From positions 1,410,001-1,442,000 of the forward strand of contig CP006868.1 of assembly GCA_025340205.1 (NCBI GenBank): a stretch of DNA of 32,000 nucleotides, in the 5' to 3' direction. The position numbers and the translations under genes were made by a program. A model generated the notes under the pieces. That model was not told the origin of the DNA, searched no databases, and was given only the letters and a program-made list of their open reading frames with translations. Below, piece by piece: positions 2,702-19,825 of this stretch. This stretch comes from Ignicoccus pacificus DSM 13166 (GTDB lineage: Archaea > Thermoproteota > Thermoprotei_A > Sulfolobales > Ignicoccaceae). Position 1 is the stretch's first letter; every line of letters starts with the position of its first letter.

Positions 2702-2706
2702 CTCTC

Positions 2707-2715
2707 TTTTTATTT
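2707..2715 (+). terminator. Oligo-T tract (TTTTTATTT) just after the stop of the 1580..2701 gene
   Basis: Archaeal terminators are T-runs. This tract begins 6 nt after the TAA stop. Confidence 0.3.
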
Positions 2716-2744
2716 CAACTTCTCACTTTATAACACAATATTCC

Positions 2745-2933
2745 TCAATGTATCTCTTTAGCGTGCTTACAAAGTTGCGGGATTGAAGGTCTGCAATTCT
2801 CGCTCCAATTGAGTGGATAAACGTAGTAGCCTTTGTTGGTAGGAAGAAGGCATCTGACATTTCCAAAGGTGGAAACGCTATAACGTGTGTGGATCACAAG
2901 AGCTCCTTCCTTCTTGAGCCTCCTTACATGCAT
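2745..2933 (-). CDS. Small hypothetical ORF (62 aa, 3 Cys); coding status uncertain
   Basis: This is the only ORF in the 270-nt gap. It is on the same strand as the 103-aa gene and 40 nt downstream of it, inside the low-GC island. No motif or obvious SD is present. Confidence 0.25.
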   Translation of the reverse strand: MHVRRLKKEGALVIHTRYSVSTFGNVRCLLPTNKGYYVYPLNWSENCRPSIPQLCKHAKEIH

Positions 2934-2973
2934 CGAGACGTACCTTATTTTTCTAAACGCCTCTGTACTAAGG

Positions 2974-3285
2974 TTAAAAAATCTTTACCGATCTGTCGAA
3001 GCAACCTTTAAACTTTTCAACTAATTCCTTGACGTTATGGGGTCCGAATTCTAAGAAGATTAAACAAGGCACCTCAACCTCGCCATTCATTCCTTTCGTT
3101 TTGTAGGATAGTAAGAGGACTAAATCACATATAGCATCCTCTTGTATGAAAAGAAAGGCTTCTGGGTCAATCATGAAGACGAATCTACCTCCTTCAAAAC
3201 CTATACTGTACATTGATCCATTCTCTTCTACTTGAATTGTTATGTTTCCATCCGCCGAGGCCTTAGCCTCTATTACACTCTTCAC
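2974..3285 (-). CDS. Small acidic hypothetical protein (103 aa), translationally coupled partner of the ATPase
   Basis: Its ATG overlaps the ATPase stop (ATGA at 3282-3285). It shares the ATPase's low GC. No nuclease, TA or DNA-binding motif is recognisable. Confidence 0.6.
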   Translation of the reverse strand: MKSVIEAKASADGNITIQVEENGSMYSIGFEGGRFVFMIDPEAFLFIQEDAICDLVLLLSYKTKGMNGEVEVPCLIFLEFGPHNVKELVEKFKGCFDRSVKIF

Positions 3286-4496
3286 GCAGACCTCACCTCA
3301 TCGGACGACACTTCAACTAGAGAAGCCAGCAAATCCTCCAAGACCTCGGATATCGAGGGACTGTTCTCAATGTCATCCAAAGCGTATCCTTTAAATCCTC
3401 CATCTCCAAAATGATAAACTTTAATATTAACACGTCTCATAGCATTAATATCTTCATTATCTGCCTCTAAGCCGTATTTACTAAGGTAAGTGACGGTCTC
3501 CTCAATACCTTTTCTAAGAAGCATTTGAGAGAGTTTGAGCTCTGCCAGAATTACATCACTATGCGAAGTTACTATCAAGGGGGTCATGGAGGCTAGTAAA
3601 CGTAGATACCATGCTATAAACCTCTGTAATGAAACATGAAGTTGGGATTCTGGCTCTTCTATTATACTCAATCTCTTCTCTTGCTGTACCAAACAGCTAA
3701 GAAGGAGCAACGGCACGTTCTCGCTAATGGAGGCGGCAACCGAATACAAATGAAAATCTTGGTTCTTATACTTGTACATAACGCCTATTTTATCTTCGAA
3801 GAATATTTCACCTTCCAAGAGAATCTTCTTCATAAGTGAAACGAAGAGCTTTCCTTTCATACACTCAGAAAGTTTTCCTTTGTATTTTGTTTCATAAACA
3901 TGAACTAACTCAGTCCATGGTAAAACGTATAAAGAGAATATAGGATCGGAGTACAAGGCCTCAAGCAATCTTCTCCGATATGTCAAAGTGAGAGGATTGA
4001 AAGAAAGGTAATAGTGGATAAAAAGTAGGAACGATTTAGCATAAGCGAGATAGGTGGAAGGATATAGACCTACTCTATCATATATTCTCTTAATGTCATG
4101 TAAGCTTACCCTTACCTTAGGAGCGCCATCTTTCCTATAGATGAGTTCTCTGAATGCTCCTCTCCCTTCTACGCTCCCTTTTTTCAAAAGAAGTTCAGAA
4201 TCCCCAATCTTCAAGGTAAATTCCGAATGTTTGAATAACCTCTTACCTTCATCGTGCCCAAACACCATCATAAATGATTCACAGAGCTTCTTGGCAAAAC
4301 CAGAGTACTCTTCACACGTCACCCCTTCCTTGTACTCAGATATGTAGGGAAGAGCAAGAACGCTATACAATAATTTAGCCACATAGCTCTTTCCGGATCC
4401 TGAAGGACCATAGAAAAGAATCAAGCTCCCCTCTCCGATCTCTAGCTTAGATCTCTGGGCAATAGGGCCCAAGGATTCTATAGTTAGCTCAATCAT
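3282..4496 (-). CDS. ABC-type (SMC/RecF-like, AAA_15/AAA_21-class) ATPase
   Basis: Walker A is GPSGSGKS (aa 30-37), following a typical N-terminal beta-hairpin (IESLGPI...LEIGEGSLILFYGP). A ~240-aa insertion follows. Then come LSIIEEPESQLH (Walker B/D-loop of the EEPE..LH type) and IVTSHSD (H-loop). Confidence 0.85.
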   Translation of the reverse strand: MIELTIESLGPIAQRSKLEIGEGSLILFYGPSGSGKSYVAKLLYSVLALPYISEYKEGVTCEEYSGFAKKLCESFMMVFGHDEGKRLFKHSEFTLKIGDSELLLKKGSVEGRGAFRELIYRKDGAPKVRVSLHDIKRIYDRVGLYPSTYLAYAKSFLLFIHYYLSFNPLTLTYRRRLLEALYSDPIFSLYVLPWTELVHVYETKYKGKLSECMKGKLFVSLMKKILLEGEIFFEDKIGVMYKYKNQDFHLYSVAASISENVPLLLLSCLVQQEKRLSIIEEPESQLHVSLQRFIAWYLRLLASMTPLIVTSHSDVILAELKLSQMLLRKGIEETVTYLSKYGLEADNEDINAMRRVNIKVYHFGDGGFKGYALDDIENSPSISEVLEDLLASLVEVSSDEVRSA

Positions 4497-4632
4497 CGAC
4501 TATTCTACCATCAAATCGCACCAGAACCGCTCTTAAATCGCTTAATAGTCCAAAGAGCTCCTATCGAAGATCGTTATTTGATTGAAAGCCGTGCTATCAG
4601 CGAATTTAAGCTTCCTCGAGGAGATCTCCTCG

Positions 4633-6441
4633 ATGATTGCCTTGAAGAGGTCCCTTCTCTTAGTAGCGGCCGTACTAGCAATAGCGCTAGCTTCCTGCAT
4701 AAGCGACCCCACGTGGGGAGCTCCGGCCACTCCTAATCCGGGATCGTACTTTAATCTAACGGTGAGCGGAAAGGTACTCCAAGTGACCATAACCAACGGG
4801 ACAAGAGCTTACACGTTGGAATATCAAAACGGCAAGGTATTCGTTCCCAAGAGCGTTCAACCCGGTCTCTACGACTTGATAGTGAAGACCGATCACGGAG
4901 AATGCTATCAGCACAACGCCGTCTGGGTAGTCCCAAGGAGTTTGAAGAGCCTAACGGTAATGCACTTGACCGACGAGCACTTCGGAGTTTACAATCCCAC
5001 CGGCAGGTGGGCGAGGAACTACGTTCTGGCTGCTATAATAATTGCGAATAGCGACCCTCAGGTTAACGCCATCTTCGTCACCGGGGACGTCGCGGATACC
5101 GCCATGCCCTACCAGTATCAAGAGGCAAGGTTAATACACGGCCTCTCCACGAAGCCCGTCTTCGTGATACCCGGCAATCACGACCACGTGAACCCTCAGC
5201 CCACTTTTGAGGAGTACGTGGGACCGTGGCACTGGTATAGGATAATAAACGACATCTTGGTCGTCGGAATAGACACCGGAGCTGATGGCTACATAGGAGT
5301 TGCACAAGCTTCCTTCGTGAGCAAGCTCCTAGCTAAGAACTACCCTATCAAGGTAATCTTACATCACCACCCGCTCTTCGCCTTCCTCTATGGGAAGCCT
5401 TATGTCTTCAAGGTAGACAGCTGGGAACAGCTGTTTAAGACCATGCTAAGCAAGAAGCCTGGATCCAAGTATCCCTACATTTACACAAGCTGGCTAGCCG
5501 ACGAGGAGGGATTAAAGGAGTTAGTGAAGGCTATCTACGACGACAACTTGACCCTAAGCCTAAGCGGCCACATACACCTAGACAGCTATGCCTTAGTGGA
5601 GAGACCCAACGGCTTGAAGACTTGGTTCATAGTGACCACGACCGCGGGAGGTCCGATTAGGCAGAGCGATTACCATGGCTTCAAGATAGTTAAGATAGCC
5701 AAGAACGACGTGGAGGTTTACGGCTTAGGAAAGCCGTGGAGCAGACACGCCTCCTACAGCCTAGAGGGGGCGATAGCCGATTTAGGACAGAACAACGTGG
5801 TATCCGTAGTAACGTTCAAACTAACCGATAAGAACTTAACCAAGCTCCTACCTCACCTAGTCCTAGCCGTCCCCATACCTAAGAACATGGCCGGAGAGTA
5901 CAACATATACTCTCCAGACTTCCAGAAGGTATGGTTAAGGTGCACTCCGGCCTTCTGCGTCCTCTTCGCCTCGACCAACAAGGTAATGTTAAACCACACC
6001 TACCGCTTAGCCGTCTACACGAAGGCAGACTTGAAGCCTCCCACCGTGGAAGGCCTAAAGTATCCGAAGAACGTGACCGTGGGAACTCCGATAACCATAA
6101 GCTTTAGCGCCTACGACGACGCTTGGGGCATTCAGAAGGTCTACGCAATCGTCAGCTCCCCTAGCTATAAGCTAAAGGCTACTCCAATGAGCTACGGAAC
6201 TACCTACACCTTAAACTTGCCTCCGGTTAAGAAGCCTGGAACCTTAAACGTAACCTTAGTGCTTGAGGACTACTACGGACACAAGACTATCAAGCACTTC
6301 AGCGTGGAGGTGCTAGGAAAGACCCAGCAAGCCCAGCATGTGAAGCCGAAGGCCATTCCATCGATCAACGTCCCCTTGTTGCCCATAGCTATAGGCGCTC
6401 TGCTGATACTGGCAGCGGCTGCCCTCTTCTTGCTAATATAG
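4633..6441 (+). CDS. Extracellular calcineurin-like metallophosphoesterase with N-terminal signal (lipobox-like LASC) and C-terminal TM anchor
   Basis: Metallophosphoesterase motifs are present in order: LTDEHFG (DxH), VTGDVAD (GD), IPGNHDH (GNH[D/E]), HHHP and SGHIH. The N-terminus MIALKRSLLLVAAVLAIALASC is a signal peptide. The C-terminus LLPIAIGALLILAAAALFLLI is a TM helix. There are many NxS/T sequons. ATG 4633 is preferred over TTG 4582. Confidence 0.85.
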   Translation: MIALKRSLLLVAAVLAIALASCISDPTWGAPATPNPGSYFNLTVSGKVLQVTITNGTRAYTLEYQNGKVFVPKSVQPGLYDLIVKTDHGECYQHNAVWVVPRSLKSLTVMHLTDEHFGVYNPTGRWARNYVLAAIIIANSDPQVNAIFVTGDVADTAMPYQYQEARLIHGLSTKPVFVIPGNHDHVNPQPTFEEYVGPWHWYRIINDILVVGIDTGADGYIGVAQASFVSKLLAKNYPIKVILHHHPLFAFLYGKPYVFKVDSWEQLFKTMLSKKPGSKYPYIYTSWLADEEGLKELVKAIYDDNLTLSLSGHIHLDSYALVERPNGLKTWFIVTTTAGGPIRQSDYHGFKIVKIAKNDVEVYGLGKPWSRHASYSLEGAIADLGQNNVVSVVTFKLTDKNLTKLLPHLVLAVPIPKNMAGEYNIYSPDFQKVWLRCTPAFCVLFASTNKVMLNHTYRLAVYTKADLKPPTVEGLKYPKNVTVGTPITISFSAYDDAWGIQKVYAIVSSPSYKLKATPMSYGTTYTLNLPPVKKPGTLNVTLVLEDYYGHKTIKHFSVEVLGKTQQAQHVKPKAIPSINVPLLPIAIGALLILAAAALFLLI

Positions 6442-6759
6442 CCTTTTTCTTTCAGGGTACCTACCTTCCTCTCCTTTCTTAACGAAGTGTAGCTCCCATG
6501 GGAAGTACCAAGGCAATCCCCTTCTCTCCATCTCCTCCCAGAGCTTCGCCCTTATCTCAATCCTTTCCTTCCTCGTAAGCTCCCTCGGAGTAACTATCAA
6601 TATGTCCACGTCGGACCAAGCGTCGTAGTCTCCTCTGGCCACGCTTCCTACTAAGTAGATCTCAGCATCTGGTATAATTTCCTTGAGGATCTCAGCTATC
6701 TTGGGCACTATCTCCCTCCACCTTAGGAGTAACTTGAGCCTCTCCGGGGCCAAGCTCAC
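6433..6759 (-). CDS. Minimal nucleotidyltransferase (MNT-type, HEPN-MNT module partner)
   Basis: LVGSVARGDYDAWSDVDILIV matches the GSxxRG...DxD polymerase-beta-type nucleotidyltransferase signature. The start is GTG at 6759. An alternative GTG at 6708 is preceded by AGGTGGAGGGAG. Confidence 0.8.
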   Translation of the reverse strand: MSLAPERLKLLLRWREIVPKIAEILKEIIPDAEIYLVGSVARGDYDAWSDVDILIVTPRELTRKERIEIRAKLWEEMERRGLPWYFPWELHFVKKGEEGRYPERKRLY

Positions 6760-7158
6760 CCTCTATTTTCCTAAACAGTTCTATCAACTTCTCCACAGCG
6801 TTGAAGAACTCTTCGACCTCTTCCTTGGTACATAGCGAAGGTTTGTACCTAGCCTCGTAGTAGGCCTCCTCCAATGCGCTTAAGGTACTCCTCTCCTCCT
6901 TTGCTATCTTCATAACTTCCTCTGCAAGCTCATCCTTCCCAAGTACCTCAAGTTCGTGTAGAGGTCGGCTAATAGCTCTCTGATCTCATGCGTCTTCCTC
7001 TCGCCTATTCCCATCCTGTAAAGCAACGACTTCAAGTACAGTAGTAAAGCTTGCTCTAAATGGAAGGCATCTAGATCGTAGTACCCGCTTTCCATGTCAA
7101 GCTTGGCATCTCCCAACAAGCGGGGAGCCCTCCTCTTTAGGACCTCGTGAACCTTCAT
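6692..7158 (-). pseudogene. HEPN-domain gene split by a frameshift (ORFs 6910..7158 and 6692..6913)
   Basis: The N-terminal ORF carries FHLEQALLLYLKSLLYRMGIGERKTHEIRELL, the HEPN helices with an R..H motif. The other frame is open from ~6985 and reads ELEVLGKDELAEEVMKIAKEERSTLSALEEAYYEARYKPSLCTKEEVEEFFNAVEKLIELF, a typical HEPN C-terminal half. Joined, the two parts give a normal ~130-150-aa HEPN protein. Confidence 0.65.
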
Positions 7159-7853: not shown

Positions 7854-8582
7854 GTGAAGAGCGTGAAGGTAGTAGGGCTGCTGGCCTCTCCAAGGAGGTA
7901 TGGGTCTTCGTTTAAGGGATTGATGCTGGCGTTGAAGGCCGCTGAGAGGTTTGGAGCGGAAACGGAGTGGTACCACTTGTATCAAATGGACATCAAGCCT
8001 TGCTTAGGTTGCGTCTCAGAGGACATAAAGGCTTGCAAATACCCATGCATAATAAAAGACGACATGAAGAAGATCTACGACGCCTTGGTTAACTCAGACG
8101 GATTCATAATAGCGACTCCGGTCTACTGGTACTCTCCCAGCGGAGTCATGAAGAACGTGATAGACAGACTTACCGCCTTGGAGAACATGATTCACATAGA
8201 CGGCCACAGCTGGCTCGACGGTAAAGTGGGAGGCTTCATAGCCACCGGAAACGATTCCGGAGCGATGTTTGCTATAGCTCAACTCATGAGCATAATGAAC
8301 TCCATGGGTGTAGTGATACCTCCGTGGAGCATGGCCTATACTAACGAGCTCGGAGATCCCTTAGAGAACAGCGCCTTTGTGACGGACTCCCTCAACGTAG
8401 GAAGAACCGTTGTAATGATGATAAAGGCTATGAGAGGTGAGAAGGTGGATAGATGGTATGATCCAGAGCTCTATGATTGGTACGAGAAGGAGTTAAAGGA
8501 GTGGTTAATCAACTTGGTAAAGGAAGAAGAAGCCAAGGCAGAGAAACCTTGGAAGGACCCTAACTGGCTCAACTCCAAGTAA
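7854..8582 (+). CDS. NADPH-dependent FMN reductase / iron-sulfur flavoprotein (Isf)-like protein
   Basis: VKVVGLLASPRR is the flavodoxin-like N-terminus. The compact Cys cluster is CLGC...C..PC. GFIIATPVYWYSPSGVMKNVIDRL is also present. The start is GTG. Confidence 0.8.
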   Translation: MKSVKVVGLLASPRRYGSSFKGLMLALKAAERFGAETEWYHLYQMDIKPCLGCVSEDIKACKYPCIIKDDMKKIYDALVNSDGFIIATPVYWYSPSGVMKNVIDRLTALENMIHIDGHSWLDGKVGGFIATGNDSGAMFAIAQLMSIMNSMGVVIPPWSMAYTNELGDPLENSAFVTDSLNVGRTVVMMIKAMRGEKVDRWYDPELYDWYEKELKEWLINLVKEEEAKAEKPWKDPNWLNSK

Positions 8583-8677
8583 ATTACATAAATGGAGTTA
8601 TTTGAGAAAATCTAATTACGTACATTCTTTCATAGGCCTTTTTAGTATTTCCTAATGCTCCCTTCTAGGAGGTAACG

Positions 8678-9202
8678 TTGGAAGAAGAAGAGCTTCTTAG
8701 GTTCATTAGAGAACAATTCTTGAGCAAGGCTCTCTTCCAATTCCTCTATCAAGAGGCCTCCCGCTTGTTCGGGGACACAGCAGCTAGACAGCTCTTGTTT
8801 AAGATAATGAAGGAATCGACGAAAATGGCGGTAAAGGAGGCCCAAGGATATGTAAAAGAACTAATAGATCCTAACAAGCCGTGCGAGTCCTTCAAGCTGG
8901 TTTACAAGGTCTTTGGGATAAGCGACGTCGAATGCGAGGTTAGCGGAAACAAGGCTCATCTGATAATAAAGAACTGTCCTCTGCCTAAGAAGTACGATCC
9001 CGAGGGCAAGGGGAACGCTTGCGTGGCCATGATAGCGATAGTGGCTGGCATGGTAGAGGAGATCATGGGAAAGAAGGTATACGTAGAAACGCCTAAGGTA
9101 AGGTTCGGGTCAGCGAGACCGGATATCGTGGTGGAGATGAAGAAGAACATACTTATGGGAGATCCTTACTGCGAGTTCGAAGCGGAGATGAAAACGAGCT
9201 GA
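8678..9202 (+). CDS. Hypothetical protein (possible V4R-like small-molecule-binding domain)
   Basis: 174-aa ORF with a GGAGGT SD 5 nt upstream of the TTG start. The Cys-containing C-terminal half (NCPL...GNACVAMIAIVAGMVEE...DPYCEFE) is reminiscent of V4R domains, an assignment I hold with low certainty. Confidence 0.55.
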   Translation: MEEEELLRFIREQFLSKALFQFLYQEASRLFGDTAARQLLFKIMKESTKMAVKEAQGYVKELIDPNKPCESFKLVYKVFGISDVECEVSGNKAHLIIKNCPLPKKYDPEGKGNACVAMIAIVAGMVEEIMGKKVYVETPKVRFGSARPDIVVEMKKNILMGDPYCEFEAEMKTS

Positions 9203-11924: not shown

Positions 11925-13526
11925 CTATTGACGTCTGCGAACGAGCACGGTCAACGCTACCAGTATGGGAGCTATTATCGCGTAGGCCGCCAACGGTACA
12001 CAGAAGGCCGCCGCTACCGGTCTGTTCATCATGGACCTCAGGCCTATGGTACACGCCTCCAAGAAGTCCCACTTAGGTATTCCCCACTGGAAGTATATCC
12101 CCGCGTTGGGTGGCAAGTACTTATTCATGTATATTGTCATGTAGAGTCTCGTTCTAAGCGTCTCGTTCCTCTTTCCGTTGCTTATTAGGAACTCCCTCAC
12201 GTAGTTGTATGCTGTATGATTGCCCTCGTAGGTGTAAAGCTTCGAGCTGACGTCCTTCACTTTCAAGACGTTGTTAAGCGTAGTAGCGTAAGGAGTTAGC
12301 AAGCTCAGAGCAGAGCCGTATACTAGAGCATAAGCGAAGGTGAGGGCTGAGAGTGCTATTAAGGCATCGTAGTACCTTTTCTTCTTAGCCGCTAAGTATA
12401 TCGGTATCGCTATACTCATAATCACCGAGAGGTAGGGATGCAAGAACCCTATCAGGGAGCTCGTCGCTACTTTATCCTTACTCTTTATATATGGAACCAG
12501 AGCTACGTAAACTGCTATTATTGCTAGAGATGCCATAGTTACTACGTAATCGTACCACTCGACCTTTCTGCTAACCTTAACTATTAAGTTATAGGAGAAG
12601 TCATAGAAAGCTACAGCTGTACTCGCTAGGATTAGCAAGAACAAGGGAAGCTCGTACTTGTTCCACTTGGGCCAATCTCTCTTAAATGAGTAAAAGGTGG
12701 CCACGGCGGCTGTCACTAAGAGGGCTAGGGCCACGGAGGTTTGGACTCCGAAGAAGGGAGAGGGCATGCCTCCGTAGCCGCTGGGATAGAGCCTCGGTAA
12801 GACGAAGGCGTCGATGAAGGCGACGAAGAGCGTTAGGGCTCCTAGCTTTGACGGCTTTACGTAAAGGTATAGGGTAGAAAGGGCGAAGAAGATCAAGGCT
12901 ACGTGGTAAGAGGTAGAGGGTATCGGGACTCCGAAGCCGTAGAGTCCCCAGAAGGCGGCCAGCGAAAGCGACAGAAATGCCAACACCGATGCGAACCTAC
13001 CATAAACCCTCCTCCCGGTAGCTAGGTAACCTATAGCGAGGGCCCCAGAGATGGTAAGGAGAGGTAAGTAAAGGAAGAAGAAGAACGACCTAAGAGTGCC
13101 GTAGCCCAAAGGAGGAAGCTTCGGTGGCTTTGCCAACATGGAACCGACTAAGGTTAGGTAGTTGGACCAGTAGAAGGCCAACGACAAAACAACGATCGAC
13201 GAGAGAACTAGTAGGGAGTCCTTCTCCTCTTTGATTCCTATTAGTGCTAATACCAAGGAGAATAGAGGTATAACGAATGTGGGTAAGGTGAGGGAGACTA
13301 TGATCCTCTCAATTAACGAGCTCCCGCAGTTCATCCAGAACCACTCGACGAGCCAGTAAACGTGACAAGTAGCGAAGGAGTAGAGTTCTAAGATCATGGG
13401 AACGAGTAAAAGTAACGAGAACAACGTTACCCTCTTTACTCCCACTATCCTCTTCGCTATTACCGATGCTAATGGCATTGACGCTATGAAGACGTAAAGC
13501 ACGAACGCGTTCACTTCTAACCCCAA
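11925..13526 (-). CDS. Polytopic integral membrane protein (about 12-14 TM helices, one ~90-aa loop before the last TM)
   Basis: The protein is 533 aa and almost entirely hydrophobic helices. A soluble segment NNVLKVKD...GIPKWDFLEACTIGLR precedes the final TM. I see no WWDxG or FlaJ/PilC signature. The start is TTG at 13526, with a possible internal ATG start at MPLASV. Confidence 0.75.
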   Translation of the reverse strand: MGLEVNAFVLYVFIASMPLASVIAKRIVGVKRVTLFSLLLLVPMILELYSFATCHVYWLVEWFWMNCGSSLIERIIVSLTLPTFVIPLFSLVLALIGIKEEKDSLLVLSSIVVLSLAFYWSNYLTLVGSMLAKPPKLPPLGYGTLRSFFFFLYLPLLTISGALAIGYLATGRRVYGRFASVLAFLSLSLAAFWGLYGFGVPIPSTSYHVALIFFALSTLYLYVKPSKLGALTLFVAFIDAFVLPRLYPSGYGGMPSPFFGVQTSVALALLVTAAVATFYSFKRDWPKWNKYELPLFLLILASTAVAFYDFSYNLIVKVSRKVEWYDYVVTMASLAIIAVYVALVPYIKSKDKVATSSLIGFLHPYLSVIMSIAIPIYLAAKKKRYYDALIALSALTFAYALVYGSALSLLTPYATTLNNVLKVKDVSSKLYTYEGNHTAYNYVREFLISNGKRNETLRTRLYMTIYMNKYLPPNAGIYFQWGIPKWDFLEACTIGLRSMMNRPVAAAFCVPLAAYAIIAPILVALTVLVRRRQ

Positions 13527-14726: not shown

Positions 14727-15524
14727 TTGAAGCTGTTTGCAGTTATAGGCCACCCCATAAAGCACTCCCTTTCACCTCAGCTACATAGAATAGCATTTAG
14801 ACTCATTGGAGAAGATGCAACTTACACCAAGGTAGACGTCCACCCAGAAAGTCTCGAGACATTCATGGAAGTCGCTCCGCTAGTTTTTAAGGGCTTGAAC
14901 GTAACCATACCCCACAAAGAAAGGGTTTATGAGCTTGTCGACGAAGTAATGGGAGTTGCTTCGGAAGTAAAGGCTGTCAACACCGTCCTATTCGAGGATT
15001 CCAGAAGCTACGGCTTTAACACTGACGTGAAGGGTGTTAGGATGGCAATAGAAAGTGAGGTTAATGCTAGGGGCATGAAGGTGGCGATCCTCGGTGCTGG
15101 AGGCGCTGCGAGGGCCGCGGTGGTAGCGTTTTACAAGGACTGTAAAGTAACCGTGTTCAATAGGACCCTAGAGAAGGCGCAACGGTTGGCGAGGGAATTT
15201 GGAGTAGAGGCTCGCCCTCTCAAGGACTACGAAGAGATAAGGAGACATAATATAATAATCAATGCAACGCCAGTAGGAATGGACGGAAGGAGTACACCTA
15301 TTCCTATTGAGGTAATAGAAAGGAATCACGTCGTTATGGATATGGTTTACCGTCCTCTCTTCACGCCCCTCCTCAAAGGAGCGCTGAGAAGGGGTGCAAA
15401 GACGGTCGATGGGTTGAGGATGCTCGTCATTCAAGGATTGGAAAGCGAGAAGATATGGTTAGGAAAGGCTCCGGATTGGAAGGTCGTCTACATGAAGTTA
15501 TTAGCTGAGCTGGCGAACGGATGA
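14727..15524 (+). CDS. aroE: Shikimate 5-dehydrogenase
   Basis: FAVIGHPIKHSLSPQLH is the G-x-PI-x-HS-x-SP motif. NVTIPHKE, the NTD motif (FNTDVKG) and the GAGGAARA NADP-binding loop are also present. The start is TTG. Confidence 0.85.
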   Translation: MKLFAVIGHPIKHSLSPQLHRIAFRLIGEDATYTKVDVHPESLETFMEVAPLVFKGLNVTIPHKERVYELVDEVMGVASEVKAVNTVLFEDSRSYGFNTDVKGVRMAIESEVNARGMKVAILGAGGAARAAVVAFYKDCKVTVFNRTLEKAQRLAREFGVEARPLKDYEEIRRHNIIINATPVGMDGRSTPIPIEVIERNHVVMDMVYRPLFTPLLKGALRRGAKTVDGLRMLVIQGLESEKIWLGKAPDWKVVYMKLLAELANG

Positions 15525-15526
15525 TC

Positions 15527-16093
15527 TCACTTCTCCTTCTCCACCTTTATCCCAGCCATGTAAAGCAACATTTGTCCCATCATCTTCTTCAGCTCTTTCA
15601 TATCATCAACTAAGAGGTCGACCTTGTTGTCAAGCCTAGCGACCGCTACCTTAAGCTCCTCCACATCTTTCTCAAGCTCATAAACTCTATGCTCCAAGGA
15701 GTCGAGCCTCTTGTTGGTATCGTCTATGCGTTTGGTCAAATCTAACCTTAAGTCATCTATCCTTTTGTTCAGTTCATCCCTAACTAGCTCTATCTTCTTG
15801 TCCAGCCTTTCCTCCGTCGCTTTGATATCATCCCTAAGCCTCTTCTCACAGCTATCTATCTTCTTGTCCAGTCTTCCTTCAGTTTCCTTTATCATTTCCC
15901 TATTCAGCTGAATCTGCTTGGCTAGTTCATCGTACCTAAGCCTCACCTCATTCAAAACCATGAAGAGCAATAGGAAGTTCGCTTCTTCACTAGTCAAAGG
16001 CTTTCCGCTTTGAATTTTATTTATCAGCTCTCCGAACTTCTCTCTTGCAAAATCATAGGCAATCTCTAAGGTCTTGTCGACCAGGAAGGCCAA
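15527..16093 (-). CDS. Coiled-coil protein with 11-residue (hendecad) repeats
   Basis: 188 aa. Residues 63-172 form ten consecutive 11-mers, such as RLDKKIDSCEK, RLRDDIKATEE and RLDKKIELVRD. TTG start 16093 is preceded by GGAGGG. Confidence 0.75.
   Translation of the reverse strand: MAFLVDKTLEIAYDFAREKFGELINKIQSGKPLTSEEANFLLLFMVLNEVRLRYDELAKQIQLNREMIKETEGRLDKKIDSCEKRLRDDIKATEERLDKKIELVRDELNKRIDDLRLDLTKRIDDTNKRLDSLEHRVYELEKDVEELKVAVARLDNKVDLLVDDMKELKKMMGQMLLYMAGIKVEKEK
15578..15907 (-). repeat. In-frame 33-nt periodic repeat region encoding the hendecads (16-nt perfect DNA repeat ctatcttcttgtccag at 15790 and 15856)
   Basis: There are ten 11-aa units. The DNA-level perfect 16-mer recurs 66 nt apart and encodes LDKKI both times. 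Confidence 0.6.
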
Positions 16094-16203
16094 TTTTATC
16101 CCTCCAATAAGATGGGGAGATTGTATTTATGCGAGAGAGTTGGGCGAAGCTAAGCCTACACAACGTAAGACCTCTCCGTCCCCACAAAGCAAGGAGAGCT
16201 CTA

Positions 16204-18013: not shown

Positions 18014-18958
18014 ATGCTCAAGCTCACTCCTCAAGACCATGAGAAGGTAAAGGCCGGAGAAGTGGAAGTAGTAAAGCTATTGGCTGATCCCATCGGAGTA
18101 GAGGAGAAGTACATAATGGCTTATATAGCTATAGGGAAGAACTCGAGAGTGCTAATAGAAACGGGTCCCAAGAAATCGTTCGATAGGCTCAAGGAGTCTC
18201 TAAAGGAAGTCGGAATAGAGATGAGGGAAATAGACGCAGTCTTCTTGACCCACATACACCTGGACCACGCCGGAGGAGCCGGCCTCGTAGCCAAGGAGTG
18301 TAACTGCCCCGTCTACGTTCACCCGAGAGGTCTTCCTCATTTAATAGATCCCAGCAAGCTGAACGCCGCTGCTGAGAGAACTCTCGGCGAGTTCGTCTTC
18401 AACGCCTATGGTCCGGCTGAGCCGCTGCCGGAGGAGTTTGCCAGGAGTACAGAGGAGAAGGTTTATTCGATTGGGGATGTAAACGTAAAGGTGATCTTCA
18501 CCCCCGGACACGCTCCTCATCACCAAGCGATCTTGATCAACGGAGTGCTGTTCCCTGGAGATGCCTTGGGAGAGGTGACCGTCTGGAGGGGAAGCTACTC
18601 CCCAACAACTCCCCACAGGACGTTACCCCCTATGATAATTGATTCTATAAGAAAGCTGATGTTTGAAAAAGTTAACTCTATAGCCTACACTCATAGAGGT
18701 ATAATAATAGGGAAGGAGGAAGCTCTTAAGCAAATGCATGGGGAGATAGAACAAATAAGGACTTGGCTCGAGGTCGCGAGGATACATTCTAAGGAATGTA
18801 AGTTGGACGTCGAATGTTACAAGAAGTACTTGCTCCTAGCAGATCCCCTTTACAAGGACTTGATGGAGAGCGGAGAGCTGGAGAAGAGCAAGCTGTTGCA
18901 AAACTCCATAAGGATGAGCATAGATGGAATAGCGAGGTACGTACAAGGAATAAAGTGA
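18014..18958 (+). CDS. Metallo-beta-lactamase-fold hydrolase
   Basis: THIHLDHAGG is the HxHxDH motif. The downstream TPGHAPHH and GD motifs are also present. Confidence 0.85.
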   Translation: MLKLTPQDHEKVKAGEVEVVKLLADPIGVEEKYIMAYIAIGKNSRVLIETGPKKSFDRLKESLKEVGIEMREIDAVFLTHIHLDHAGGAGLVAKECNCPVYVHPRGLPHLIDPSKLNAAAERTLGEFVFNAYGPAEPLPEEFARSTEEKVYSIGDVNVKVIFTPGHAPHHQAILINGVLFPGDALGEVTVWRGSYSPTTPHRTLPPMIIDSIRKLMFEKVNSIAYTHRGIIIGKEEALKQMHGEIEQIRTWLEVARIHSKECKLDVECYKKYLLLADPLYKDLMESGELEKSKLLQNSIRMSIDGIARYVQGIK

Positions 18959-19825
18959 TTACACGACTTTTATATAATCGAACATTCCTACCTTCATCTT
19001 GACCCTGACCACTCCCTTCCACTTCAACCTCTCCTTTATCACCTTCCCTATCTCTTCAGCGACCTTGTAACCGCTGAAGAGACCGACCTTGGAATTAGGA
19101 CTCTTTTCGGCTACCACGAGAGCATTTATCCTGTTCTCAGCTAGGTCGATAGTTATTATATAGTCCTTTACGATCAATCCCTTTGAAACTAGCAACGTCT
19201 TTATCAAGTCATCTAGGATAATATCGGCTACTACGTATAAGGTATGACCCTCGAGGCTTACGACAACAGCTAGGGGGTTGGGGAACCTCTCATTCTGAAG
19301 TATAGAGTTGAGATACTCGAGCACCAGCTTCGCCGCTCCCATCACGCTCGTCGATATCTTCTCGGTCCTCGTCAGCCTTACCTTTATCACCCACATGTTC
19401 ATATCTTCATCAAATTCTGAATCGACGTCAGTAACGGTAAACGGGAGCTTATCGCTCAGCTCTACCAAGGTCCACTTTAACTGCTCCGTTATCTTCTTCA
19501 CCCACTTTTCCTCAGTCATCTCCTCCTTCTTCTCTGCCTTTTCCTCTTCCTTCTTTTCTTCCTCCGCCTCCTTTGGTGTTACCTCCTCCTCAATTACTCT
19601 AGGCTTTACCTTCCTCTTACCCAGCTCCTCCAGCATCGGAAGGGGGAGAAACACCACGAAGGTATGATCCTCCGGCACGCTCTCTACGGTCTGCTTGTCT
19701 ACCACGACTAGGACGGGGTCATCAGTGGACAAGGAGACGACCTTTGCAGTGCCCCATTTCTTAACGAATTCCTTAAGCTCATCTCCCCTTAATATGATAA
19801 ATCCGGTCTTGGCCAAGACTATCAC
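18959..19825 (-). CDS. Hypothetical protein with a central Lys/Glu-rich linker
   Basis: 288-aa ORF. It has an N-terminal ~75-aa domain, the KE-rich segment EEEVTPKEAEEEKKEEEKAEKKEEMTEEK, and a ~180-aa C-terminal domain. No motif is recognised. Its stop abuts the MBL gene's stop with zero spacer. Confidence 0.65.
   Translation of the reverse strand: MIVLAKTGFIILRGDELKEFVKKWGTAKVVSLSTDDPVLVVVDKQTVESVPEDHTFVVFLPLPMLEELGKRKVKPRVIEEEVTPKEAEEEKKEEEKAEKKEEMTEEKWVKKITEQLKWTLVELSDKLPFTVTDVDSEFDEDMNMWVIKVRLTRTEKISTSVMGAAKLVLEYLNSILQNERFPNPLAVVVSLEGHTLYVVADIILDDLIKTLLVSKGLIVKDYIITIDLAENRINALVVAEKSPNSKVGLFSGYKVAEEIGKVIKERLKWKGVVRVKMKVGMFDYIKVV

Follow-up and report, generated by a model that had tools for sequence, protein, structure and literature searches.

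The wider superfamily of ATP-binding cassette (ABC) ATPase defence systems, which includes OLD, Gabija, Septu and PARIS, also holds PD-T4-4 and HEC-02. PD-T4-4 is said to be a two-gene anti-phage system of Escherichia coli that came out of the work of Vassallo and colleagues in 2022. It combines an ABC/P-loop ATPase with a PD-(D/E)xK protein, PF11645 (PMC10952713), forms higher-order complexes, and gave no DNA cleavage in vitro under the conditions tested (bioRxiv 10.1101/2025.07.10.664194). HEC-02 consists of an ABC ATPase and a NERD protein (Payne et al., 2024, bioRxiv 10.1101/2024.01.29.577857). Here we describe a block of low G+C content in a 32,000-nt stretch of Ignicoccus pacificus DSM 13166 (contig CP006868.1, positions 1,410,001 to 1,442,000; the window in what follows), which holds three open reading frames (ORFs) on its minus strand, encoding a 404-aa ATPase, a 103-aa protein and a 62-aa product. 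We propose that the block was probably acquired horizontally, that it is a copy of a two-gene module, mainly archaeal and so far uncharacterised, made up of an ATPase and a nuclease, and that the nuclease gene is interrupted in this copy.

The comparison with PD-T4-4 yields both likeness and difference. In both cases two genes encode an ABC-type ATPase of about 400-600 aa and a small protein of PD-(D/E)xK type, and PD-T4-4_A is the best or near-best PADLOC match for the window ATPase (40 bits) and for most of the relatives scanned (up to 75 bits). This match is partial: the window ATPase covers positions 263-411 of the 460 in the profile, its relatives match in N- and C-terminal stretches, and AriA and PDC-M56A score comparably. 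The similarity between the ATPases is of class level and confined to the core, and their inserts differ. On the side of the second gene, PD-T4-4_B was matched by one of 20 partner proteins (E=0.038) and PF11645 by none, and neither the 103-aa window protein nor the 179-aa protein obtained by fusing it with the frame that follows matches PD-T4-4_B. The present family is archaeal and associated with thermophiles, and the clade of the window copy carries E-x-G for E-x-K. With the B-subunit models unmatched and subunit A matched only in part, the sequences do not support placing the module in PD-T4-4.

HEC-02 likewise pairs an ABC ATPase with a separately encoded nuclease from the restriction-endonuclease superfamily, and the HEC-02A and HEC-02B models match the ATPases weakly; the present partner, however, is a far smaller protein that is not recognised as NERD, and we saw no Hma embedding. 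PARIS, Septu and Gabija/OLD share with our locus the ATPase class, AriA, PtuA and OLD being its nearest solved representatives, and the logic of an ATPase sensor that serves a nuclease effector. They differ in the effector itself, which is a Toprim/DUF4435 protein in PARIS, OLD and Gabija and an HNH protein in Septu; the window module has none of these. A first-pass annotation of the window had concluded that the gene pair fits no known system. No described system claims the pair at the level of sequence, so that much stands, but its architecture is that of a known class, ABC ATPase plus PD-(D/E)xK-type protein, to which PD-T4-4 and HEC-02 belong.

The ATPase and its conserved neighbour

The 404-aa protein is an ABC-type ATPase. 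All three motifs listed in the first-pass annotation (GPSGSGKS, LSIIEEPESQLH and IVTSHSD) are present (Table 1), with a spacing of about 238 residues between Walker A and Walker B. Against Pfam PF13304 (AAA_21) the protein scores 35.0 bits, above the cut-off of 27, and against AAA_15 it scores 27.9 bits, below the threshold of 32.1. A profile of its clade finds its nearest structures in the PDB in an OLD-family nuclease (6p74, E=6e-9), AriA and PtuA, in each case across the region from Walker B to the H-loop only. The proposed assignment to the SMC/RecF-like ATPases of the AAA_15/AAA_21 class is thus borne out. PADLOC matches of the protein, to PD-T4-4_A, AriA, PDC-M56A, NsnB and GajA, are partial and of class level only. 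Of the ABC signature motif and the Q-loop, the alignments show only a signature-like A-S-x-x-x-E at residues 254-260, in which E259 is invariant. Every member of the clade has Glu-Glu in Walker B (IIEEPE), the usual form being Asp-Glu. Pfam and PADLOC found no Toprim/DUF4435 or HNH domain in the ATPase, its partner or the 62-aa ORF, and no nuclease domain is fused to the ATPase.

Exact-sequence look-ups of the ATPase, one flanking gene and the 103-aa protein returned no record, and a word-indexed protein search with the ATPase gave no match. A phmmer search of 1.84 billion representative proteins returned 26 matches under 1e-10, the best of which (P0001) has 33% identity (E=1.7e-31). The window protein, strongly divergent as it is, can be aligned over its whole length with a small group of proteins of 447-470 aa (P0001-P0004 and P0010) and more distantly with 554-589-aa proteins of Archaeoglobales and Thermoplasmata. 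All other members of its mainly archaeal clade measure 447-636 aa, which makes it a compact one, and the alignments place its missing length in deletions within the insert that separates Walker A from Walker B. All 30 of the invariant columns in an 8-sequence alignment are retained, and to judge by its sequence the ATPase gene looks intact, without sign of decay.

In every genomic relative for which downstream sequence was available, the ATPase gene is followed directly by an ORF of 163-176 aa on the same strand. A metagenome scan contributed about 50 further ATPase loci. We retained 47 loci that had the ATPase motif with 450 nt or more of sequence downstream, and subjected them to an ORF survey followed by a scan with a hidden Markov model (HMM) of the partner. 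A partner-family match was found immediately downstream of the ATPase in 45 of them, with E-values from 1e-14 to 1e-54; 28 of the loci were built into the HMM, many of the others are independent, and some contigs are near-duplicates. The tight coupling between the small gene and the ATPase, which had been suspected from the window alone, is upheld as a conserved co-occurrence. The module occurs in Archaeoglobales and Thermoplasmata, in a small number of other archaeal assemblies and in metagenomes from vents or hot springs.

The partners of the three closest ATPase relatives with known context are 159, 184 and 169 aa long and carry no annotation, and the family as a whole spans 143-204 aa. Its conserved positions are an N-terminal Cys, a Glu, an (H)C-Asp, an hhhh-Glu-x-Lys motif with a further Lys about 10 residues on, a "VLV-P" strand and a C-terminal Cys. 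In a 20-sequence alignment the Asp is invariant, conservation of E42, E79 and K91 is 90% or higher, and the ExK motif is present in most members. The family has no sequence relative in the PDB, and a Pfam scan of the partners gave only isolated matches to PDDEXK_2 and VRR_NUC, at E>0.03. Two loci with an EEPE…LH ATPase lack the usual partner. In one of them (L038, 5152-7373, 62% G+C) an overlapping 323-aa ORF comes next, and in the other (L040, 50-1177) the next ORF encodes 100 aa and is unmatched by the partner-family HMM; these may be effector swaps.

Predicted fold of the partner and a possible mechanism

A full-length partner (P0154, 150 aa) was modelled with AlphaFold2 at a predicted local distance difference test (pLDDT) score of 87.6 and a predicted template-modelling score (pTM) of 0.84. 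In the model the conserved Glu lies in helix 25-32, the Asp starts strand 41-47 and the ExK motif ends strand 50-58, beyond which come a long helix and then more strands. This placement of the residues is the one known from the α-β-β core of PD-(D/E)xK proteins. The top Foldseek matches in the PDB are mostly PD-(D/E)xK proteins (XisH, Cap4, MspJI, FokI, MunI, SgrAI, HamA, Shedu, BamHI and the Lassa endonuclease), and those in BFVD likewise, among them the HamA C-terminal domain, PD-(D/E)XK endonuclease-like proteins, VRR-NUC, DUF2726, UL24 and exonuclease VIII. It is quite likely that the partner adopts a PD-(D/E)xK fold, and from that predicted fold we infer that it may act as a nuclease. The earlier statement that the partner shows no nuclease motif is overturned for the family, whose members carry E…D…ExK motifs and are predicted to fold like a restriction endonuclease.

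By analogy with PD-T4-4, HEC-02, Septu and PARIS, the module would most likely operate as follows. The first gene would supply an ABC-type ATPase of the OLD/AriA/PtuA class and the second, translationally coupled to it, a protein of probable PD-(D/E)xK fold. An oligomer of the ATPase would keep the nuclease inactive and sense a cue from the invader; binding or hydrolysis of ATP, or binding of the trigger, would then free or activate the nuclease, which would cleave nucleic acid and so halt the virus or the infected cell. In the window copy the ATPase looks intact and the nuclease gene halts at a run of six T residues (T6) after residue 103, before the C-terminal strands of the family. A role in defence, which the first-pass annotation had favoured, is on this analogy a reasonable reading.

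Archaeal antiviral systems beyond CRISPR and restriction-modification are largely uncharted. The present work defines a recurrent gene pair whose smaller gene is missed by PADLOC, Pfam, NCBIfam and PHROGs, and it would extend the theme of an ABC ATPase sensor with an interchangeable nuclease effector to hyperthermophilic archaea, with a restriction-endonuclease-like effector that is unusually small. Concrete full-length members are now at hand for testing. The principle is already well established in bacteria, and the module would therefore extend known biology rather than overturn it.

A probably interrupted partner gene

The 103-aa protein was compared with the partner family at several levels. 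BLASTP aligned it with the partner of P0004 over 87 residues (E=4e-7), hhalign matched it to the profile of the close-clade partners with 77% probability (E=1.9e-5), and its reading frame was the sole one matched by the close-clade partner HMM (HMMER, E=5e-6). BLASTP against the partner of P0002 revealed no homology. The comparison with the distant partners from Archaeoglobales and Thermoplasmata was not significant (hhalign 0.3%, HMMER -2.4 bits), and the E/D/E columns that an alignment suggested it shares with them were dropped for this reason. The close-clade and distant partners are themselves linked, profile to profile, with 79% probability. Given the significant matches to the close-clade partners together with this link, the 103-aa protein is by sequence homologous to the first ~95 residues of the partners. 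It had been described as an orphan, a view refuted by its membership of a family that lies directly downstream of the ATPase at 45 of the 47 loci.

The 103-aa protein carries E42, C53-D54, E79-F-G-P-H, K91 and C95. Its ExK position reads E79-F-G81, with Gly replacing the Lys of most members; E-A-G-(P/L)-H is found in two full-length relatives, and E-M-K is kept in a third. Since two full-length relatives also carry Gly, the substitution is, on these alignments, characteristic of the clade and does not signal local decay.

The 103-aa ORF ends within the long helix that follows the ExK strand, and the C-terminal 60-80 residues of all relatives are missing from it. It stops ahead of the fourth core strand, contains neither a complete catalytic motif nor a complete core fold, and gives a poor AlphaFold model (pLDDT 61). 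The T6 run at its stop codon is one of just two homopolymers of at least 6 nt in the block, and is a candidate either for a frameshift or indel site or for an oligo-T transcription stop. From the run onwards the +1 frame is open over 76 codons, for which simulations with the dinucleotide composition of the block gave P=0.0037, or P=0.0075 if either alternative frame is allowed. A shift of one base at T6 would yield a product of 179 aa, the partners of the closest relatives having 159-184 aa. The first-pass annotation correctly placed the 62-aa ORF 40 nt beyond the 103-aa stop, but overlooked that the 103-aa ORF is a truncated family member and that the 62-aa ORF belongs to a frame running on from it through T6. 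We infer a frameshift origin for the split from the geometry and length of the frames, not from homology. The window copy is most likely a frameshifted and possibly inactive effector gene, unless the length of T6 is an assembly error.

When the missing C-terminal half of the partner was sought with an HMM in all six frames, the match was confined to the 103-aa reading frame; the C-terminal half of the family is poorly conserved. That positions 2745-2975 descend from this half is, on the sequences, a matter of roughly even odds.

Several observations weigh against the reading of the block as an ATPase-nuclease module with an interrupted nuclease gene. The +1 extension does not resemble the C-terminal half of the family beyond chance (p = 0.14, 0.067 and 0.23 with three HMMs, 1000 shuffles each), its coding score falls between those for windows read in frame and out of frame, and its G+C is spread over the codon positions in another way than in the island genes. 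No NCBIfam or PHROGs model matches the partner family, and the nuclease models of Pfam and PADLOC do so only through isolated single-member matches at E>0.006. Foldseek returned nothing at E≤0.001 for the partner model, the best E-values being 0.03 in the PDB and 0.002 in BFVD, with TM-scores of 0.3-0.46. Nuclease activity in the clade of the window copy is uncertain, because the ExK lysine is absent from this copy and from two full-length relatives. Finally, several of the relatives, like the window block, sit amid ordinary genes and not in clear defence islands.

Part of this evidence speaks for an intact minimal system, in which the 103-aa protein would be a genuine short partner and the 404-aa protein a compact ATPase, with T6 as the oligo-T terminator of the operon and the 62-aa ORF arising by chance or being unrelated. 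The ATPase too is shorter than every relative while keeping all invariant residues, the extension lacks significant homology to the C-terminal half of the family and has its own codon-position GC pattern, and oligo-T runs are archaeal termination signals. This possibility deserves attention, but we think it unlikely: the 103-aa ORF stops in the helix after ExK, so that the next strand and the C-terminal elements of all 45 partner homologues are missing, its model is poor, and the +1 frame is open over exactly the missing length (P≈0.004-0.0075).

An error of assembly or base-calling within T6 would leave the true genome with an intact partner of ~179 aa and a fully functional system. The break falls exactly on one of the two long homopolymers of the block, the fused length agrees with that of the relatives, and the ATPase shows no decay. 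Against this, a split HEPN gene in the vicinity is not broken at a homopolymer, which means that no general signature of homopolymer errors is apparent, and the coding signal of the extension is weak; we regard such an error as rather improbable.

A bolder proposal would make the pair a new archaeal immune system whose Ignicoccus effector exists in two forms, by way of +1 recoding at UUU-UAA, or as a split nuclease of two polypeptides. We hold this to be very improbable. Were the recoding version true, the lethal full-length nuclease would be made at a low, regulated level only, and recoding would serve a hyperthermophilic archaeon as the safety switch of a defence effector. Programmed recoding as such, by a +1 ribosomal frameshift at UUU-UAA or by transcriptional slippage on T6, would give a little regulated full-length effector beside the truncated form. 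In the bacterial prfB model the P-site tRNA-Phe re-pairs from UUU to UUU with the stop codon in the A site, and the window offers a shift-prone P-site codon with perfect re-pairing, a stop in the A site and an open +1 frame. None of the 45 partner homologues is split, however, all being called as single ORFs; the analysis identified no stimulatory element, the extension has a weak coding signal, and T6 is short for efficient transcriptional slippage, so that the chance of programmed recoding appears slight indeed. Least credible of all is an AbiEii/AAA_21-type pair, acting in toxin-antitoxin or abortive-infection fashion, or an ABC or DNA-repair ATPase with a housekeeping role, for although Pfam labels AAA_21 a "putative AbiEii toxin" domain and the genes overlap as in many toxin-antitoxin pairs, neither small ORF matches AbiEi or a helix-turn-helix domain, the partner is a conserved restriction-endonuclease-like protein, and the NCBIfam models of ABC transporters and repair proteins match the P-loop only (E>0.004). 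The sporadic distribution, the foreign composition and the lack of any relative above 33% identity all speak against a housekeeping role.

Composition and origin of the block

The module lies in a block that departs in composition from the rest of the window (40.3% against 50.4% G+C). Among all 1880-nt stretches of the window it has the lowest G+C, the next non-overlapping one reaching 46.3%. The G+C of its genes is 0.39-0.40, compared with 0.505±0.030 in the 34 other ORFs of the window (z = -3.4 to -3.9), and G+C at third codon positions (GC3) is 0.40-0.42 in the 404-aa and 103-aa genes, compared with 0.62±0.05 in the same 34 ORFs (z≈-4). In codon usage the same two genes are a poor match to the background of the window. 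The departing, foreign composition noticed at first pass is thus confirmed by sliding G+C and by GC3. The flanks reach at most ~58% at 400-nt resolution and not the 68% then given. Shallower dips (0.42-0.45) are seen in the window at 8401-9000, 12201-12600, 15401-16200 and 18601-19200, all less deep or long than the block.

Because the GC3 of the block lies about four standard deviations below that of its surroundings and no relative exceeds 33% identity, the block is by these sequence criteria a horizontal acquisition, clear in Ignicoccus pacificus and probably caught in mid-decay. The absence of any protein above 33% identity among the 1.84 billion representatives also suggests that the module is missing from the other Ignicoccus genomes sequenced. 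The surroundings of most family members have 27-45% G+C, like the block, and those of the closest clade 52-67%. A nanoarchaeal or viral donor, which had been raised as a speculation, found no support, and neither did the toxin-antitoxin reading. No relatives were found in IMG/VR viral contigs or in phage and plasmid collections, and a plasmid search with a better-scoring relative returned fragments around Walker B only. A look at the borders of the block turned up neither direct repeats nor a tRNA gene or an integrase.

The three minus-strand ORFs lie where the first-pass annotation had put them, with one detail to be corrected: the stop of the ATPase gene overlaps the start of the 103-aa gene as GTGA, with a GTG start, and not as ATGA. 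The 103-aa protein is acidic as described (16 D+E against 10 K+R). The guess of an "Ignicoccus-like" host was right, since Ignicoccus pacificus DSM 13166 has a "hypothetical protein IPA_08250" with which the 103-aa protein is identical. The features of the block are collected in Table 1.

Table 1. Features of the low-GC block and its module, in window positions
Feature	Position	Strand	Remarks
Low-GC block	2702..4581		From the stop of the + strand 378-aa gene to the listed TTG start (4582) of the metallophosphoesterase ORF
404-aa ATPase ORF	3282-4496	minus	ATG start
Walker A GPSGSGKS	4386..4409	minus	Residues 30-37; G30, G35, K36 and S37 invariant in the family
Walker B/D-loop LSIIEEPESQLH	3636..3671	minus	Residues 276-287; IIEEPESQLH invariant in the family
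H-loop IVTSHSD	3555..3575	minus	Residues 308-314; H312 and S313 invariant
TATA-like ATTTAAGA	4531..4538	minus	~39 nt 5' of the ATPase ATG; read from the sequence
103-aa ORF	2974-3285	minus	GTG start, overlapping the ATPase stop as GTGA
T6 run	2976..2981	minus	…ATT TTT TAA; includes the first base of the TAA stop of the 103-aa ORF
+1-frame continuation	2745..2975	minus	76 codons + stop; contains the 62-aa ORF
62-aa ORF	2745-2933	minus	ATG start; begins 40 nt past the 103-aa stop

The TATA-like ATTTAAGA is a possible archaeal promoter element. On the opposite strand, the only Rfam match, to the drz-agam-2-2 ribozyme (3020-3159, +, antisense to the 103-aa ORF), scored 23.3 bits against a gathering threshold of 38 and lies within coding sequence; it was set aside as noise.

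Elsewhere, conflict genes lie near the module's relatives and speak for the reading of the block as an ATPase-nuclease module; among the neighbours are a DUF1156 fragment, HepT/MNT pairs, PIN toxins, an IS110 transposase, an AAA_14-DUF4143 ATPase and a Schlafen-like helicase. At three Archaeoglobales loci (L001, 8129-9601; L002, 5412-6887; L003, 8461-9930) the module lies directly 3' of an ORF of ~490 aa that has an N-terminal DUF1156 domain only. Full-length DUF1156 methylases are about twice that size, and at these loci the module may have been inserted in, or be embedded beside, a methylase or restriction-modification-like gene.

The window block itself is flanked by an unannotated 378-aa protein and the metallophosphoesterase gene, with MNT and split HEPN genes 2 kb off. 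For two sizeable ORFs beside the block, at 870-1472 (-, 200 aa) and 1565-2701 (+, 378 aa), Pfam gives no match at E≤0.001. The MNT/HEPN genes form a toxin-antitoxin-like pair at 6433-7158 on the minus strand, in which the HEPN domain is divided over two ORFs: 6910-7158 covers profile positions 2-67 and 6692-6913 covers positions 70-116, and the two overlap by ATGA. The junction does not fall on a homopolymer. Within 4 kb of the block there is, with this HEPN gene, another gene that is split.

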